From contig MEXB01000009.1 in assembly GCA_001773575.1 (NCBI GenBank), positions 7,441 to 71,440 of the forward strand: a DNA stretch of 64,000 nucleotides, read 5' to 3'. Below the pieces are notes generated by a model. The model saw nothing but the letters and a program-made list of their open reading frames with translations. It searched no databases and was not told where the DNA came from. Origin of the DNA: Candidatus Adlerbacteria bacterium RIFOXYC1_FULL_48_26 (GTDB taxonomy: Bacteria > Patescibacteriota > Minisyncoccia > Phycocordibacterales > SBAW01). The position numbers and the translations under genes are program-made. Below, piece by piece: positions 11,130 to 62,353 of the stretch (its first letter is position 1; each line of letters opens with the position of its first letter).

Positions 11130-11318
11130 CAACACTGTTCCATACTCTCCAAGCAGTCGGACCGCTGCATTGATTCCCTTCTCAGTCGTCTCCTGGTGTT
11201 CAAAGACGAAAAGGCGCTCGTTGACCTTAAACTTAAGGTCTATAGGGTAGTTACCCCATCTATAACTGAACTCATCCCGCTTTTCTGTTGAGTGGAAGTC
11301 GATCAGAATTTTACACAT
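11118..11318 (-). CDS. Small hypothetical protein (66 aa)
   Basis: Canonical SD AAGGAGG 7 nt upstream of ATG; own terminator; convergent with paralog A, divergent from paralog B. Confidence 0.5.
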   Translation of the reverse strand: MCKILIDFHSTEKRDEFSYRWGNYPIDLKFKVNERLFVFEHQETTEKGINAAVRLLGEYGTVLRCQ

Positions 11319-11422
11319 TATGTCGCCCTCCTTCTAACTGCCTTGAGGGTACTCCTTCTTAAATTTTTGTCTACTGGGAGAAATAGTGTATATTCGTCTT
11401 CGGCAACCCAGAGGAGTTCCTA

Positions 11423-11695
11423 ATGCCTTCAAACACCCAGTTGATTGCGCGAGTAAAGGTGGACCGCCGGTTCAGCGGCGACATCGCGTGCGAACTTCGG
11501 AAGCGCTTCCCGAAGTATGAAAAGTACGAACGTCTGCCGGCTGCCGGCAAGGACGATGTCACGCACCTCCTGGAGTTCACCGTTGACGAGAAAGACGCCA
11601 AGGTGTTCTTCACCCTCCACCAGCGTATGGGACCCCATCGCGGCGAACTGATGTTCTATCGGCCAGAAGTCATTCCGGAGGCCGTCGCCGCCTGA
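11423..11695 (+). CDS. Small hypothetical protein (paralog B, 90 aa)
   Basis: SD GAGGAG before ATG; paralog of 10625-10879. Confidence 0.6.
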   Translation: MPSNTQLIARVKVDRRFSGDIACELRKRFPKYEKYERLPAAGKDDVTHLLEFTVDEKDAKVFFTLHQRMGPHRGELMFYRPEVIPEAVAA

Positions 11696-15122: not shown

Positions 15123-15434
15123 TTAATAGTTACTAAACGTAGTAGTTGTTGTACCAACTACCTCAATTCCAGTCTGTGAAGTATCGCCGACGGCACCCGC
15201 TCCTGCAAGCTGTGTCTGTTGATCATTATTTGCAACCTGTCCAGAATTTACCGATGTTCCAAAGCGTACTCCCAACGTCGTTACCCACACTACAAACGCA
15301 AGCGCTGTAAACAGCCCCGCAAATTGCACCGCATGTTGGCGGCGATGATGTGGGGCTTTTGCTTGTACGTGTTTGACGTATTTGTTGTACATAACGCTAT
15401 GCTGTGAGAACCACGATTTCCCCCTCCTTACCAT
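15123..15434 (-). CDS. Small hypothetical membrane protein
   Basis: ORF between gyrA and MBL gene with one TM helix; no SD; weak. Confidence 0.3.
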   Translation of the reverse strand: MVRRGKSWFSQHSVMYNKYVKHVQAKAPHHRRQHAVQFAGLFTALAFVVWVTTLGVRFGTSVNSGQVANNDQQTQLAGAGAVGDTSQTGIEVVGTTTTTFSNY

Positions 15435-16017
15435 CAAGATCTTTTTTCTTAACGGTAAATTTGTCCATTGGCTCTACTTTGTCTACACCCGCTTCCTTCA
15501 AGAACGACTTAAGCGCTGCTGCTTCGTAGTGCATGGGGATGATTACCTTTGGTTCTAGCTGTACAGCGAGCTTGTACGCATCGGCATAGTCGAGAACACC
15601 TTCCCCGCCGATTGGAAGGAAAAGAATGTCTATATTGTCGAGCTCCTGCTTTGCCGCCTGGGGCATCTCTGTCGTGCCAAGTGCGCCAAGGAAGCAGAGG
15701 TTCATGCCCTCAAACGCAATTCCATAAATAGTATTGATGTGTTTTCCACCTCCATAGGTAGACTCAGATCCAAACCCGCGAACTGCGATTTCTTTTACTT
15801 CATATTCGCCAGGGCCAGAGACAACGAAAGGCTCGCGTTCACCAAAAGCAGCATTTTCAACACCGTTAAAGTCTTCGTGGTTCTGGCTTACGAGAACGAT
15901 GTCTGAACCAAATCGTACGCTTTTTTGTTTTGAATCTTTAGAAGGAAGGTTAAACGCGAGGGTAAGCTCTCCCTGCGAAATCTTGAAGCACTGGCCTCCC
16001 ATATAGTTGATAACCAT
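15397..16017 (-). CDS. MBL-fold metallo-hydrolase
   Basis: 206 aa; beta-lactamase-fold hydrolase pattern (VLVSQNHEDF..., IPMHYE). Confidence 0.75.
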   Translation of the reverse strand: MVINYMGGQCFKISQGELTLAFNLPSKDSKQKSVRFGSDIVLVSQNHEDFNGVENAAFGEREPFVVSGPGEYEVKEIAVRGFGSESTYGGGKHINTIYGIAFEGMNLCFLGALGTTEMPQAAKQELDNIDILFLPIGGEGVLDYADAYKLAVQLEPKVIIPMHYEAAALKSFLKEAGVDKVEPMDKFTVKKKDLDGKEGEIVVLTA

Positions 16018-16057
16018 ACCTTCATTTTATCATAATTTGGCTTAAAAAGACACCTAA

Positions 16058-16086
16058 TTGACGCCTAAAATTTGGCACGGTATAGT
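16058..16086 (+). promoter_or_regulatory. Sigma70-like promoter TTGACG-17-TATAGT driving GC-rich islet I
   Basis: Hexamers at 16058-16063 and 16081-16086 with 17-nt spacer. Confidence 0.55.
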
Positions 16087-16120
16087 GTCAGTCCTTAGAT
16101 CTTTCTGGAGCAACGACCAC

Positions 16121-16207
16121 ATGAGCAGCACTCCTCCCGCGCGTCCTCAGCAGCAGGAACGCGAACGCACGAACGACCGTGAACGCCAGCAGCGCGAACA
16201 CGGCTGA
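16121..16207 (+). CDS. 28-aa highly charged peptide ORF (MSSTPPARPQQQERERTNDRERQQREHG); alternatively an sRNA
   Basis: Sits between the promoter and a strong terminator in a ~200-nt transcription unit; weak SD. Confidence 0.3.
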   Translation: MSSTPPARPQQQERERTNDRERQQREHG

Positions 16208-16256
16208 TCTCGCCAGCGGCCGGGGAGTCACGCACCCATGCCAAACGGCCGCTACG

Positions 16257-16297
16257 GGCCCCTCCTGACTTTGTCGGGAGGGGCCTTTTTCTTTTCT
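16257..16297 (+). terminator. Rho-independent terminator (9-bp GC stem + TTTTTCTTTTCT)
   Basis: GGCCCCTCC-loop-GGAGGGGCC followed by T-run. Confidence 0.8.
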
Positions 16298-16322
16298 AGA
16301 TCTAGATATTCACTTCTGCCCC

Positions 16323-16350
16323 TTGCATGAATTCTACACATTGGTAGAGT
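16323..16350 (+). promoter_or_regulatory. Possible promoter TTGCAT-16-TAGAGT for mini-gene P1
   Basis: Hexamers by eye; weaker match. Confidence 0.4.
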
Positions 16351-16395
16351 TTAGGAGTTCGCGGCATTCCGCCGACGGAACAGAAGGAGGCTCTT

Positions 16396-16569
16396 ATGAA
16401 GCACTTCAGTCAGTCCTTTCCGATGCAGAAGAAGCACCTCGGCGCCAACAGCCTCGCCACCGGCAGCTCCCACGGCCTCAGCGCGACCGGCGTGAAGCTC
16501 GATCCGACCATGGCGAACATGACCGACCAGGCCGCCGCCGCCGGCCGTCTCGACGTCGACAAGGGCTGA
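16396..16569 (+). CDS. GC3-rich mini-gene P1 (57 aa, Gly/Ala/Ser-rich, C-terminal Gly)
   Basis: Canonical SD GAAGGAGG 6 nt before ATG; nearly all third codon positions G/C; followed by two hairpins, the second a strong terminator; shorter than the 60-aa ORF-track cutoff. Confidence 0.5.
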   Translation: MKHFSQSFPMQKKHLGANSLATGSSHGLSATGVKLDPTMANMTDQAAAAGRLDVDKG

Positions 16570-16615
16570 ACTGCAGCCGTACCTCTTCAATCCTGGGCTT
16601 CCCCAGGGCCAACCC

Positions 16616-16649
16616 GGGCCTCACAGAAATGTGAGGCCCATTCTTTTTT
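16616..16649 (+). terminator. Rho-independent terminator after P1
   Basis: GGGCCTCAC-AGAAAT-GTGAGGCCC + TTCTTTTTT. Confidence 0.8.
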
Positions 16650-16779
16650 CTATAACGTTGCAAAATAGCCTTATATCCTATATATTCGAGCTAATAGAAA
16701 GCCCAGCTTTTTATTAGCGAGGGTGGAATTAACCTTTCGGATCGGCCCGGAAACCTCCATCTGACAATTACATAATTAT

Positions 16780-17874
16780 ATGAATGAAGTAGAAGAGGGT
16801 TCTATCCCTACGTCCGTAATGGCCATGTTCGCAGAACAGGCCCAAATGCCACCTAAGGAAGGTGACATTATTGAAGGTACAGTGTTGGCGCTCGACCGCG
16901 CAAAGCTCTATATCGACCTCCCACCGTTTGGTACTGGTGTTATCTTCGGCCGCGAATACATGAACGCGCGCGAAGTTATCAAGCGCATTAACGTTGGCGA
17001 CATCATCGCTGCAAAGGTTATCGCAACTGACAGCAAGGATGGCTACATCGAGCTTTCTCTTAAGGAAGCACGCCAGGCTATCATCTGGGCAGAAGCAGAA
17101 GATGCAGTTCGCAACAAAACTCAGTTCGACCTCGTTATTAAAGAAGCAAACAAGGGCGGTCTCATCTTGGAATGGCAAGGTATCGCAGGCTTCCTCCCTG
17201 CCTCACAGCTTAAGGCTGAGCACTATCCTCGCGTTGCAGATGGCAACAAGGATGAAATTTTGAACGAACTCCGCAAACTTGTTGGACAGAAGCTTCCTGT
17301 TTCCCTTATCTCTGCAATTCCAAAAGAAGGTAAATTGATCTTCTCTGAAAAGGGTGCTGACGATAAAGAGAAGAAAGAAATCGTAGAACGCTATGTCGTT
17401 GGCGATGTTATTGAAGGCGAAGTCACAGGTATGGTTGACTTCGGTGTCTTCGTGAAGCTTGAAGAAGGCTTGGAAGGCCTCGTACACATCTCTGAGATCG
17501 ACTGGGGCCTCGTAGACGACCCTCGCCACTTCTTTAAAGTGGGAGATAAGGTTGGCGTTAAGATAATCGACATCAAAGAAGGTAAAGTATCTCTCTCTGT
17601 GAAGCAGCTTAAGGCAAACCCATGGATGGAAGCTTCAGGTAAATACAACAAAGGAGACAAAGTTGAAGGCGTCGTTATCAAATTCAACAAACATGGTGCA
17701 CTCGCATCTATTGAAGAAGGTATCGCAGGCCTCGTGCACGTGTCTGAGTTCGGCACTGAAGACAAGCTCCGCAGCTCGCTTGAACTTGGTAAGCGTTACC
17801 CATTCACCATTTCCCTCTTCGATCCGAAGGAAATGCGCATGGCGCTCTCATTTGGCACAGGCGAAAAGAAATAG
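16780..17874 (+). CDS. rpsA: 30S ribosomal protein S1 (short 4-S1-domain form)
   Basis: 364 aa; repeated S1 domains (GDIIEGTV..., GDVIEGEVTGMVDFGVFVKL..., GDKVEGVVIKFNKHGA...). Confidence 0.85.
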   Translation: MNEVEEGSIPTSVMAMFAEQAQMPPKEGDIIEGTVLALDRAKLYIDLPPFGTGVIFGREYMNAREVIKRINVGDIIAAKVIATDSKDGYIELSLKEARQAIIWAEAEDAVRNKTQFDLVIKEANKGGLILEWQGIAGFLPASQLKAEHYPRVADGNKDEILNELRKLVGQKLPVSLISAIPKEGKLIFSEKGADDKEKKEIVERYVVGDVIEGEVTGMVDFGVFVKLEEGLEGLVHISEIDWGLVDDPRHFFKVGDKVGVKIIDIKEGKVSLSVKQLKANPWMEASGKYNKGDKVEGVVIKFNKHGALASIEEGIAGLVHVSEFGTEDKLRSSLELGKRYPFTISLFDPKEMRMALSFGTGEKK

Positions 17875-40117: not shown

Positions 40118-40159
40118 GGAGACAGTATAACGCGCAAACGCCCCCGCTAGGCGAGGGCG

Positions 40160-40544
40160 TCCACATATCTGCGCGCGCGTATGTAAGCCGAATTCTGTTT
40201 TGCAGAATGTAATTTATCTGGGCCTGTCCTCGCGGACAGGCTCGAGCGGCTCCCAATCCCAACTAATGTTGGGAAGTACGGCCTTGCACCCAAGTAAGGA
40301 TTTTGCCGTTTCACCCGAACTAAATCGGTTCGTCACTGTTCGCACCTCTCTCGCCCGCAAAAAGCGAGTGACAGGGATTACCCACGCAAAGCAAAGTTAC
40401 CCTTGCCGCGTGGCCCCGAGATAAAATCAGAGATTTTATTTTTCGGGGCTGCTACCTTGTTAACCCTACGATTGCTCGAGGGTGGGTGTTCGGACTTTCC
40501 TCCCCTCAACTTTCATTGAGGAGCTACATTCCAACGCGCTGATA
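40160..40544 (-). ncRNA. rnpB: RNase P RNA (bacterial type)
   Basis: Minus-strand reading contains P3 hairpin CCUCAA-UGAAAG-UUGAGG, P4 5' strand GGAGGAAAGUCCGAAC, GGUGAAA / GGUGCAAG motifs and P4 3' strand ACAGAAUUCGGCUUACA; ends approximate. Confidence 0.75.
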
Positions 40545-44050: not shown

Positions 44051-44296
44051 CTAGTAAAAGCAGCGTCCGCGCTTGCCCTTGCAGACCGGCGCCCTTTCGA
44101 AGGAGCCGTGCGACGGCGTTTCGGGATAGTCCCGGAACACCGTGGTGTGCGCACTGGCCGCCGGCGCGATCGCGGGCTTGGACGCCTGCATCGACATCTG
44201 CGCCACTTCGACAATCTTGAGGTTGCCGTACATGGCCCGATGAACAGCACGGTCGGCGAGCGTCGGGTCAACAGTATTCAGAACCAAAGTGCCCAT
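44051..44296 (-). CDS. GC3-rich mini-gene P2 (81 aa)
   Basis: SD GGGGAG 7 nt before ATG; perfect consensus promoter upstream; hairpin GAGGCGG...CCGCCTC + T-rich tail after stop; GC-rich codons. Confidence 0.5.
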   Translation of the reverse strand: MGTLVLNTVDPTLADRAVHRAMYGNLKIVEVAQMSMQASKPAIAPAASAHTTVFRDYPETPSHGSFERAPVCKGKRGRCFY

Positions 44297-55377: not shown

Positions 55378-55641
55378 TTACAGGTGGGCGGCCAGCGGGT
55401 TGCCGCTGTCGCGCAGGAACCCCATCCCGAACTTCGAGACCGGGTGGACATTCCCGCCACGCGTCTGGCAGAGAGCGCCGTCCTGGACGACGAGGTCGCC
55501 CGCGTCCGGCCGGACGCAACCGTAGTCCTTGGCCGAGACCACGACCACAGCATCGGATTTGACGCTACCCTGCTGCTCCGGCGTGAAGACACAGGACGTG
55601 CAGCAGGGCGGACAGCCGCCACACGGGGGCTTCTTGGACAT
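55378..55641 (-). CDS. GC3-rich mini-gene P4 (87 aa) with Cys-rich N-terminus MSKKPPCGGCPPCCTSC
   Basis: SD AGGAG (inside palindrome CCTTCGAAGG) 8 nt before ATG; strong terminator after stop; GC-rich islet flanked by AT-rich DNA. Confidence 0.5.
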   Translation of the reverse strand: MSKKPPCGGCPPCCTSCVFTPEQQGSVKSDAVVVVSAKDYGCVRPDAGDLVVQDGALCQTRGGNVHPVSKFGMGFLRDSGNPLAAHL

Positions 55642-61349: not shown

Positions 61350-61395
61350 GCTAGTTTAGGGAACCCACTCGTACGCGTACGCTACTGAAGCCGCG

Positions 61396-61575
61396 CTAGC
61401 CGAGCGTGGGATGGAAGCTGAGTTCGTTGCTCGGGTCGGTGCCACGCTCCTGCGCGCCACCGCTGCTGCTCGCCGAATGTGCGCCGGTGCCGCCGAGATG
61501 AGCCTGGACCTCAGCCGTCGTCATCACCGTCGCACCTTCACCCAAACGGGCCGTGAGGGCCGATTGCATATTCAT
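61396..61575 (-). CDS. GC3-rich mini-gene P3 (59 aa, Gly/Ser/Ala-rich, ends ...HPTLG)
   Basis: SD GGAGG 6 nt before ATG (MNMQ...); 80 nt downstream of E1-like gene with no terminator between; strong terminator after stop. Confidence 0.5.
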   Translation of the reverse strand: MNMQSALTARLGEGATVMTTAEVQAHLGGTGAHSASSSGGAQERGTDPSNELSFHPTLG

Positions 61576-61654
61576 AACCGTCCTCCGTTTGTACTCCGAC
61601 CATCTCAAGGATGGCCTTTCTAACAGTAGCAACCAGAACTAGCCCGTCAAGTGT

Positions 61655-62353
61655 TTACCACTGGAACGTCTGTACTTCGTGGGAAACCATGTCGACGCGC
61701 ATTTGATTGTTCAACAAATCATCCGCTCCACTGCGAATGGCATGGAAGCGCACCATCTCCCACACAGCATCGCTTGCTGCACGCACGACTGTCGTGGGGA
61801 TAGCGATATGCCCTCCGCACCCGCCAATAAGATTGTCTCCCTGCTCGTCGGGATACCAGTACCTTTCCCACTGCTCGATGTGAGAAGCGTTGTTAGGGTC
61901 GATGACATGCGTGATGATATGGGTCGCATCCATGCGCGTTTCGATGAACAGCGTTATCTGGTCGTTCTGCTTGATACAGCTTTCCCAGATACTCTTACGC
62001 GTTTTCATGCTATCGAGACACGCGAAGACTACGCCTGCAAGAGGCCTGTAGCCATCAACAAATTCCCGATGTTCATGAATTTGTGCACCTGTCCATTGCT
62101 CTGCGAGCCGGACAAGCGCCTCCGTTTTGTACATACCAACATGATTCATCCCATACACTTGGTTGGGAGGATTATGTGAGGCAACTGTATCGCCATCCCA
62201 CACATGAAGTTCGTTTTGATGACCGCATCCGAACCTGACTAGAAGTTCGGCGACACGGCCACCGATTCCGCCCACGCCGATCACATGGATTGGATCCTTG
62301 AACGTCGTGTGATCGAAGATGGCGTCATGGCGTCTGGTGTCATAAACCATCAC
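61655..62353 (-). CDS. E1-like ThiF/MoeB/HesA-family adenylyltransferase (ubiquitin-activating-enzyme fold)
   Basis: 232 aa; Rossmann HVIGVGGIGGRVAELLVRFG; DGDTVASHNPPNQ matching DxDxVexSNLNRQ; Cys-containing ACLDSMKTRK region. Confidence 0.8.
   Translation of the reverse strand: MMVYDTRRHDAIFDHTTFKDPIHVIGVGGIGGRVAELLVRFGCGHQNELHVWDGDTVASHNPPNQVYGMNHVGMYKTEALVRLAEQWTGAQIHEHREFVDGYRPLAGVVFACLDSMKTRKSIWESCIKQNDQITLFIETRMDATHIITHVIDPNNASHIEQWERYWYPDEQGDNLIGGCGGHIAIPTTVVRAASDAVWEMVRFHAIRSGADDLLNNQMRVDMVSHEVQTFQW

Follow-up and report, generated by a model that had tools for sequence, protein, structure and literature searches.

The 64,000-nucleotide stretch of the Candidatus Adlerbacteria bacterium RIFOXYC1_FULL_48_26 genome analysed here (the window) carries an insert of about 595 nt (16058-16652), termed islet I, in the 762-nt spacer between two divergently transcribed genes, that of a metallo-β-lactamase (MBL)-fold hydrolase and rpsA. 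The insert appears to be lineage-specific and to hold two autonomous transcription units, both co-oriented with rpsA and each made up of a promoter, a very short open reading frame (ORF) and an intrinsic terminator. The order of these signals and the whole arrangement are kept in one sister species, the site is occupied by different mini-genes in another, and it is empty elsewhere in the lineage. The reading that we favour, with modest confidence, is that islet I represents moron-like accessory cassettes that are swapped horizontally at an intergenic hotspot and were drawn from a gene pool richer in G+C.

The neighbourhood of islet I is composed of gyrA, a small membrane-like ORF, the MBL-fold hydrolase gene, rpsA, pth and lepB. 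The GC content of 16058-16649 was 0.593 compared with 0.480 for the window, and reached 0.635 and 0.655 when calculated over 200 nt. Over 150 nt, the peaks of the islet (0.70-0.71) were more than 4 standard deviations over the window mean (0.48, standard deviation 0.052), and comparable 150-nt peaks occurred in only three other places in the 64 kb. A promoter consensus scan of a 1-kb region returned four promoter-like sites, versus 0.6 ± 0.9 in shuffled sequence. These results bear out an earlier sequence-only reading of the window, which had described a GC-rich islet of two self-contained units with a promoter, a mini-ORF and a terminator each; the signals found are listed in Table 1, and both ORF sequences were exactly as that reading had given them.

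The islet sequence was present in 10 independent public contigs obtained with different assemblers from different samples. Nine were 100% identical and one had two differing bases. In the latter, an assembly of the same strain (L001/L121), G16564A changes the last residue of P1, the 57-amino-acid product predicted for the ORF of unit 2, from glycine to serine (G57S), and T16572G alters the 3′ untranslated region (3′UTR). These were the sole polymorphisms in the 2.5-kb MBL-rpsA region across the ten assemblies. An assembly chimera was rejected on the ground that the islet recurs in ten independent assemblies. A synthetic construct was considered in view of BglII, XbaI, EcoRI and PstI sites in the islet and was also rejected, as such sites were equally common window-wide and the presence of the islet in many independent assemblies likewise countered this explanation.

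The same site was compared in two related Adlerbacteria species, L002 (metagenome-assembled genome, MAG, CAYGIN01) and L003 (MAG JAIEMM01). These two species and the window lie at roughly equal distances from one another, with 84-91% nucleotide identity in the MBL-fold hydrolase gene and rpsA. L003 is one sister species that shares both units, with the whole arrangement conserved. The L002 spacer contains two different GC-rich mini-genes, each with a promoter, a Shine-Dalgarno (SD) sequence, an ORF (45 or 75 aa) and a terminator, and no similarity was detected between these mini-genes and the units of the window. Searches with nhmmer for each block of the islet detected the rpsA leader widely, and neither unit outside the window and L003. 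Empty spacers of 142-278 nt were found in 11 related loci fetched (9 distinct gap sequences). The left 40 nt and the right 127 nt of the window spacer, the latter holding the rpsA promoter and leader, could be set end to end against these spacers of less than 300 nt, which makes islet I an insert in comparison with those genomes.

The spacer is variable across the lineage. The 67 distinct Adlerbacteria spacers that were anchored by both flanks ranged from 142 to 2361 nt (median 730). The MBL-fold hydrolase gene was kept in every relative found with that flank, whether or not the gap carried units, and the relatives identified by rpsA were all Adlerbacteria or Paceibacterota; no relative nearer than 86% rpsA identity was found in metagenomes. 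Three other mini-proteins of the window are identical to proteins of the RIFOXYC1_FULL_48_26 MAG, which belongs to the Paceibacterota and comes from groundwater of the Rifle aquifer. Twelve related spacers were examined in detail and each carried one to three promoter/mini-ORF/terminator units on the plus strand, the first of which usually had a near-consensus TTGACA-16/17-TATAGT promoter located 40-75 nt from the start of the MBL gene. Across all loci, the mini-ORFs of this slot fell into many tiny, unrelated clusters, the types including Gln-rich hydrophilic peptides, small signal-peptide proteins and Gly/Ala-rich peptides. The insert is bordered on its right by the rpsA promoter and leader, which were 80-100% conserved in L003 and detectable across Adlerbacteria, empty-spacer lineages included; as judged from sequence conservation, this block belongs to rpsA and is not part of the islet. 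The rpsA leader hairpin may serve as an operator for S1 autoregulation.

Table 1. Coordinates of islet I, its flanks and the other GC3-rich mini-genes of the window (GC1, GC2 and GC3, GC content at first, second and third codon positions; GRAVY, grand average of hydropathy; pI, isoelectric point)
Feature	Position	Strand	Details
MBL-fold hydrolase gene	15397-16017	-	Pfam Lactamase_B_3
Unit 1 promoter, sigma70-type	16058-16086	+	TTGACG-17-TATAGT; consensus scan 10/12
Unit 1 SD-like motif	16107-16110	+	GGAG, 10 nt before ATG, read by eye; same motif and spacing in L003
Unit 1 28-codon ORF	16121-16207	+	MSSTPPARPQQQERERTNDRERQQREHG; pI 9.1, GRAVY -2.6, Gln/Arg/Glu-rich
Unit 1 two-tier stem-loop, 3′UTR	16215-16253	+	8-bp outer stem AGCGGCCG/CGGCCGCU, 3-4 bp inner G/C stem
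Unit 1 intrinsic terminator	16256-16296	+	Hairpin 16256-16286, 14-bp stem (10 G-C pairs), then T-run
Unit 2 promoter, extended -10 type	16323-16350	+	TTGCAT-16-(TGn)TAGAGT, read by eye
Unit 2 SD	16383-16390	+	GAAGGAGG, includes GGAGG; 5 nt before ATG
Unit 2 57-codon ORF (P1)	16396-16569	+	GC1/2/3 = 0.59/0.48/0.91
Unit 2 small hairpin, 3′UTR	16592-16607	+	CCTGGG-cttc-CCCAGG; read by eye, in centroid fold; not conserved in L003
Unit 2 intrinsic terminator	16616-16649	+	Hairpin 16616-16639, 10-bp stem (7 G-C pairs), then T-run
Right border: rpsA promoter and leader hairpin	16653-16722	+	TTGCAA-17-TATATT (16658-16686); hairpin CTAATAGAAAGCCCAGCTTTTTATTAG
rpsA	16780-17874	+	
90-aa mini-gene	11423-11695	+	GC3 0.74
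81-aa mini-gene	44051-44296	-	GC3 0.79
87-aa mini-gene	55378-55641	-	GC3 0.86; Cys-rich
59-aa mini-gene	61396-61575	-	GC3 0.75

On the strength of its sequence features, we regard unit 2 as a protein-coding gene. The GC3 of P1 was far above that of 63 host ORFs (0.468 ± 0.055, maximum 0.61; z = 8), and none of 1468 host windows of 58 codons had a GC3 above 0.76. The three-base periodicity of G+C was significant by chi-square both in P1 (p = 6e-7) and in its L003 ortholog (p = 1e-9). The latter is the hypothetical protein K2Q00_02480, from a MAG with 96% rpsA amino-acid identity; it has a GC3 of 0.96, shows the promoter, SD and ATG as in P1, and has an equivalent stop codon followed by a terminator. 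In an unconstrained DNA alignment of the two genes, codon phase was held in all 156 ORF columns (156/156), with internal gaps of 9 and 12 nt. The promoter of unit 2 has a weak -35 element and was absent from the consensus scan; its block was 83% identical in L003, versus 50% for the ORF. The SD at the matching spot in L003 is GAGGAGG, and a 10-bp hairpin was kept at the position of the terminator.

Most of what had been read in unit 2 was recovered: the weaker promoter and canonical SD, both of them conserved in L003, the G or C at almost every third position of P1, and the two hairpins 3′ of the ORF, the second a terminator. The assertion that the codon usage of the islet is foreign to the window held for P1 and failed for the 28-codon ORF of unit 1, with its GC3 of 0.66. 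Of the two composition measures that the earlier reading had proposed, GC3 flagged P1 and a codon adaptation index (CAI)-like measure did not; the latter is uninformative here because host codon bias is small.

The antisense frame over P1 is also open and shares the GC3 periodicity by geometry. P1 was assigned to the plus strand because the plus-strand promoter, SD and terminator are conserved and because no such signals were found on the minus strand. The AlphaFold model of P1 (predicted local distance difference test, pLDDT, 59; predicted template modelling score, pTM, 0.17) showed almost no secondary structure. P1 was apparently not called in the NCBI annotation of the source MAG; its predicted tryptic peptides are HLGANSLATGSSHGLSATGVK and LDPTMANMTDQAAAAGR.

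Unit 1 presents a different pattern of conservation. Its promoter was found by the consensus scan where it had been read, and L003 has TTGACA-17-TATAGT in the same place. Evidence that the 28-codon ORF is coding was weak. This frame is the only one open in both the window and L003 (28 versus 30 codons), and the two versions are related by one 6-nt indel and share the C-terminus QQRxHG. The GC1/2/3 values of the ORF (0.76/0.55/0.66) showed no GC3 excess, identity by codon position was flat (0.50/0.64/0.50, p = 0.64), and no significant codon-position signal was detected. Conservation within the islet was highest instead in the block 16208-16254, which holds the two-tier stem-loop of the 3′UTR and was 85% identical to L003, versus 46% for the unit 1 ORF. 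Folding of the stem-loop and terminator gave the same structure in both species (z -4.1 and -3.6). In the L003 terminator the stem sequence has changed and a 16-bp hairpin is retained; in the window the terminator is present as described, its stem having 14 pairs (10 G-C) rather than the 9 bp once proposed. Since the 3′UTR stem-loop is the best-conserved part of the unit and the evidence for coding by the ORF is weak, unit 1 may give rise to an mRNA for a peptide, to a small RNA, or to an RNA that serves as both. That unit 1 could be a small RNA had been raised at the outset, and the conservation of the stem-loop over the ORF agrees with it.

The stronger form of this proposal, that unit 1 (less plausibly unit 2) is a regulatory or structural RNA in which the ORF is incidental or secondary, is a tentative alternative, a serious one for unit 1, and is considered less than probable. 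The conservation of the stem-loop block over the ORF, the flat codon-position identity, and the single fold of a two-tier stem-loop followed by a long terminator in two species all argue for it, and unit 1 matches the typical layout of a bacterial small RNA, in which a 3′ stem-loop precedes an intrinsic terminator. Against it, neither unit matched Rfam 15 at the gathering threshold or at E ≤ 10, the only passing matches of the window being tRNAs, and the best score in 16000-16800 was 22 bits to BjrC68 (threshold 39), located on the unit 2 terminator. The whole transcripts were not clearly more stable than shuffled sequences (z -1.7 and -1.6), a covariance model of the unit 1 stem-loop found no further copy in 640 kb of relatives, and no target was identified. 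In addition, L003 keeps the GGAG spacing, the ATG, the C-terminal QQRxHG and an indel that is in frame, in the only frame open in both species. For unit 2, the three-base periodicity excludes a purely non-coding RNA.

Homologs of the islet peptides were sought in several collections. A word-indexed search of 5.8 billion clusters matched P1 to itself only, and a profile search seeded with P1 and its L003 ortholog recovered no protein besides this pair. When 1.8 billion representatives were scanned exhaustively with HMMER, the sole additions were two long repeat proteins, which aligned to P1 in 9-11 stretches and were rejected as compositional noise. Pfam and PHROG contained no family for any mini-peptide, and KGG-type stress proteins, considered for the Gln/Gly/Lys-rich peptides of the slot, were dismissed on the same ground. 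Phage, plasmid and IMG/VR collections contained no match to the islet peptides. A broader P1-like family, defined by an 'MKxF' N-terminus and a Gly-Ala-Gly C-terminus among the slot ORFs, was rejected when pairwise scores proved no better than those of shuffled sequences; P1 against its own ortholog reached only z = 2.9 in the shuffle test. In the literature on Adlerbacteria and on small proteins in candidate phyla radiation (CPR) bacteria, nothing describing these mini-genes was found. On the evidence of these searches, P1 and unit 1 are orphans with homologs solely in L003. The suggestion of an actinobacterial donor found no support, as no homolog was present among the 5.8 billion or 1.8 billion proteins or in the phage and plasmid collections. 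A source in GC-richer Adlerbacteria is likelier than one in Actinobacteria; many Adlerbacteria are GC-richer than the source genome, and rpsA GC3 among them reaches 0.85.

The insert and its flanks have diverged from L003 in different ways. The flanking genes had a nonsynonymous divergence (dN) of ~0.02, a synonymous divergence (dS) of 0.6-1.15 and a third-position identity of 0.59-0.72, the values of near-saturated neutral sites. For P1, dN was 0.52 and dS 0.38, and identity by codon position was 0.62/0.42/0.69, lowest at the second position (p = 0.01 versus the third). The share of third-position differences that were C<->G exchanges was 12/16 in P1 versus 9/184 in rpsA and the MBL gene together (Fisher p = 7e-11). 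Because dN is at least as high as dS, the second position is the least conserved, and hydropathy and Cys content differ between P1 and its ortholog, the amino-acid sequence of P1 is, by these measures, not under purifying selection and essentially unconstrained. The differences between P1 and the flanks in dN/dS, codon-position identity and C<->G spectrum suggest that the histories of insert and flanks are decoupled. These selection tests rest on two homologous sequences. The retention of high GC3 in both alleles would fit a long-ago divergence in GC-rich genomes followed by separate import of the two alleles; active upkeep of third-position G/C while the peptide drifts or diversifies would fit as well.

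In the proposed model, unit 1 would be transcribed from its promoter into an RNA of ~200 nt comprising the GGAG motif, the 28-codon ORF, the conserved stem-loop and the terminator. Unit 2 would produce a transcript of ~290 nt from its extended -10 promoter, with the strong SD, the 57-codon ORF and the terminator. Each unit would be transcribed alone and insulated from rpsA by its own terminator, while rpsA would use its own promoter. The predicted product of unit 2 is a small hydrophilic peptide, probably unstructured and under relaxed or diversifying selection. That of unit 1 would be a short RNA, the 3′ stem-loop of which suggests a role at the RNA level, possibly besides that of a tiny charged peptide. 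The source of the cassettes would most plausibly be other Adlerbacteria or CPR bacteria. The combination of a strong expression cassette with fast-changing, strain-specific content fits an accessory role towards a changing partner, for instance a host, a competitor or a phage, more readily than a housekeeping role. We infer the horizontal origin, expression and function of the islet units from their sequences and those of their relatives.

Islet I is not the only such element of the window, since at least four more stand-alone GC3-rich mini-genes were found (Table 1). Each of these four has an SD and a terminator hairpin; the promoter-like hexamers upstream were read by eye and do not derive from the scan. 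Two of the four loci bear directly on the exchange of such genes. The 87-aa protein, the N-terminus of which is CGGCPPCCTSC, is encoded between the genes for a ZIP zinc transporter and a YibE/F protein. Its homologs (43-54% identity) belong to relatives of 47-51% GC and have GC3 values of only 0.48 and 0.56. Their neighbourhood is similar, with a Fur-family regulator and YibE/F, and with ZnuABC in one genome, and by analogy the 87-aa protein is probably zinc-related. Since the homologs have ordinary GC3, such genes appear to have no general need of high GC3, and the gene of the window looks as if it had been replaced by that of a GC-richer donor.

At the second locus, the 59-aa gene and the 3′ end of the upstream ThiF/E1-family gene (61390-61870, minus strand) were ~97% identical to another Adlerbacteria species (L130, 1-480). 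Third-position identity to that species was 0.93 in this tract, and 0.50 in the adjacent gene for a protein with peptidoglycan-binding, TIG and PKD domains (82% amino-acid identity). A ~97% identical tract beside a gene with saturated third positions points to recent recombination between the two species at this homologous site.

Several observations weigh against import of the islet as moron-like cassettes. P1 and its ortholog differ in GRAVY (-0.41 versus +0.33) and in number of Cys residues (0 versus 5), differences that would hardly be expected if the two had the same biochemical function. Selection tests on two sequences are weak, and a dN/dS of ~1 would fit a translated but functionless ORF too. 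Both P1 alleles have a GC3 above 0.9 despite the near-saturated synonymous sites of the flanks, such that native selection on third positions is possible, and the promoter, SD and terminators show the conservation across the two species that vertical inheritance would produce. No donor of the islet was found in the databases searched. The strand of P1 was assigned only from its promoter, SD and terminator, the antisense frame having the same periodicity, and the transcripts, their ends and their translation were deduced from sequence signals alone.

Two of these observations are also what would be expected of native genes of the clade, inherited vertically and evolving fast, in which selection holds third positions at G or C and import is not needed; selection for a stable, nuclease-resistant, highly expressed short mRNA is one proposed cause. 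In such genes GC3 values of 0.91 and 0.96 would persist despite near-saturation in the flanks, third-position changes would be almost all C<->G with A/T avoided, as was observed, and the signals would be conserved by descent. Slot ORFs with raised GC3 also occur in other low-GC lineages (L036, 0.85; L014, 0.77 and 0.83; L006, 0.75). We nevertheless consider this explanation doubtful. The homologs of the 87-aa gene in relatives of similar GC (GC3 0.48 and 0.56) argue that high GC3 is not generally required, L002 is equally related to the window and carries entirely different genes at the site, exchange between species is directly visible at the 59-aa locus, and highly expressed host genes such as rpsA (GC3 0.51) have no such bias.

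A more far-reaching proposal is that the MBL-rpsA spacer is a dedicated slot that actively diversifies short coding cassettes, with GC3 locked and the frame kept free of stop codons, to yield a strain-specific repertoire of peptides. This is considered improbable. If true, changes at first and second codon positions would outpace the neutral rate and be rich in C<->G exchanges, in contrast to the host spectrum, the peptides would serve the dealings of these putative episymbionts with hosts, competitors and phages, and the slot would constitute a new route to peptide diversity that is independent of diversity-generating retroelements (DGRs).

The remaining explanations are disfavoured because each fails one tested defining feature. 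It is very unlikely that P1 is the precursor of a bacteriocin, a microcin or a ribosomally synthesized and post-translationally modified peptide. Its size fits (55-57 aa), the C-terminal half of the L003 ortholog is rich in Cys, Ser, Thr and Gly, turnover is rapid and strain-specific as for antagonism genes, and some slot occupants of other lineages have signal peptides; but no modifying enzyme, C39/ABC exporter or immunity gene is present nearby, the neighbours being housekeeping genes, P1 has no Cys, hydrophobic core or recognisable leader, and the Gly-Ala-Gly motif and 'hydrophobic-Gly-x' leader sought among slot peptides failed the shuffle test. Targeted hypermutation, with the ORF as the variable region of a DGR or similar mechanism, has very little to recommend it: CPR bacteria are rich in DGRs, many P1 codons are NNC, and conservation is lowest at position 2 (0.42) and highest at position 3 (0.69), but no template-like copy of the islet occurs in the 64-kb window (best off-diagonal match 31 nt, 77%; no search was aimed at a reverse transcriptase), the differences are not restricted to adenines (C<->G, C<->T and A<->G are all present), and the locus is clonal over 10 assemblies, with two differing bases in one, unlike an active diversifier. 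Equally hard to credit are upstream leader ORFs or attenuators regulating rpsA, to which the constant co-orientation of the units immediately upstream of rpsA and the possibility in principle of reading through each terminator would conform, since the rpsA promoter and leader lie 3′ of the unit 2 terminator and are conserved even in unit-free spacers of 142-199 nt, unit content is unrelated between lineages, and no alternative antiterminator pairing was evident in the folds.

A type I toxin-antitoxin system was also considered and rejected, as both peptides are hydrophilic (GRAVY -2.6 and -0.41) and no antisense promoter was found.

Among known systems, the closest likeness to the cassettes favoured here is to the moron, a concept reportedly introduced by Hendrix and colleagues. 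Imported DNA is usually AT-richer than its host. According to one published account, phage morons are short coding regions with their own promoter and intrinsic terminator, located between genes that are adjacent in relatives, deviant in composition, and acquired by a mechanism that is unknown (PMC4378225). Both units of islet I, and those of L003 likewise, have a sigma70-type promoter, an SD and ORF, and a G+C-rich hairpin followed by a T-run. They are inserted between neighbours that are adjacent in the 11 loci with 142-278 nt spacers, and their composition deviates (GC 0.593 versus 0.48, P1 GC3 0.91), the third positions of the 28-codon ORF excepted. Islet I differs from morons in that it lies in a cellular chromosome between housekeeping genes, lacking both phage genes in its vicinity and matches in PHROG or phage databases, in that it has two tandem units, and in that its GC deviates upward. 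Since the phage or prophage context is lacking, the islet is not a strict moron, and the resemblance in mechanism is offered as an analogy.

Chromosomal hotspots of horizontal gene transfer have variable content between fixed core genes. The MBL-rpsA slot is similar in its fixed core flanks, variable lineage-specific content, empty sites and apparently decoupled histories. It differs in being miniature (0.15-2.4 kb, 0-4 mini-genes), in having no integrase, tRNA, attachment repeat or mobile-element gene, and in that almost every occupant is an orphan ORF of 25-120 aa with a promoter and terminator of its own. In a published survey of species-specific prokaryotic orphans, GC and GC3 closely track the host, and those with viral matches or of de novo origin are GC-poorer (PMC11293555). 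P1 resembles these orphans in being short, free of homologs, predicted to be disordered and narrowly distributed; in contrast, its GC3 is 8 standard deviations above that of the host. Dual-function small RNAs include SgrS/SgrT, RNAIII/hld and SR1/SR1P. With these, unit 1 would share a stand-alone transcript of a predicted ~200 nt, a very short 5′ ORF and a conserved structured 3′ end; it has no sequence or Rfam relationship to them, and the likeness, seen in the sequence, is one of layout only. Overall, islet I belongs to an ordinary category, that of lineage-specific orphan mini-genes in a variable spacer, and its odd feature is the locking of GC3 together with a divergence dominated by C<->G changes.

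Some further features of the mini-genes and the window were recorded. The 81-aa mini-gene has a perfect TTGACA-17-TATAAT promoter upstream, as read by eye, and the 90-aa mini-gene pairs divergently with a 64-aa ORF of ordinary GC (11130-11322); both mini-genes are NCBI hypothetical proteins without a Pfam family. A glycine codon directly before the stop codon (GGC TGA/TAA/TAG) was seen in 5 of 10 mini-peptides of the window, L002 and L003, namely P1, the 59-aa peptide, the product of the second mini-gene of L002, and the 28-aa peptide together with its ortholog; if one homologous pair is treated as a single case, a Gly frequency of 10% gives a chance probability of ~1%. The 59-aa peptide thus ends in glycine beside an E1-like enzyme, which may be meaningful. 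A class A bacterial RNase P RNA lies at 40168-40542 (minus strand), within a GC-rich 'gap' (40118-40544). It is a full-length match to the model (91.7 bits, E = 1e-28) and was missed by the default Rfam scan because its score is just under the gathering score of 100.

With islet I, a CPR genome gains two mini-genes that were unannotated or listed as 'hypothetical'. The islet also indicates that an intergenic spacer between housekeeping genes can act as a miniature hotspot at which genes are exchanged throughout a CPR lineage. The genomes of CPR bacteria are tiny, and these organisms are presumed to depend on other cells. Strongly expressed, strain-specific small proteins are plausible mediators of such dependence, and they are systematically missed by annotation pipelines. 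If imports from GC-richer relatives explain the GC3 of these genes, islet I would reflect gene flow at the level of cassettes between CPR species of ~80-90% identity.

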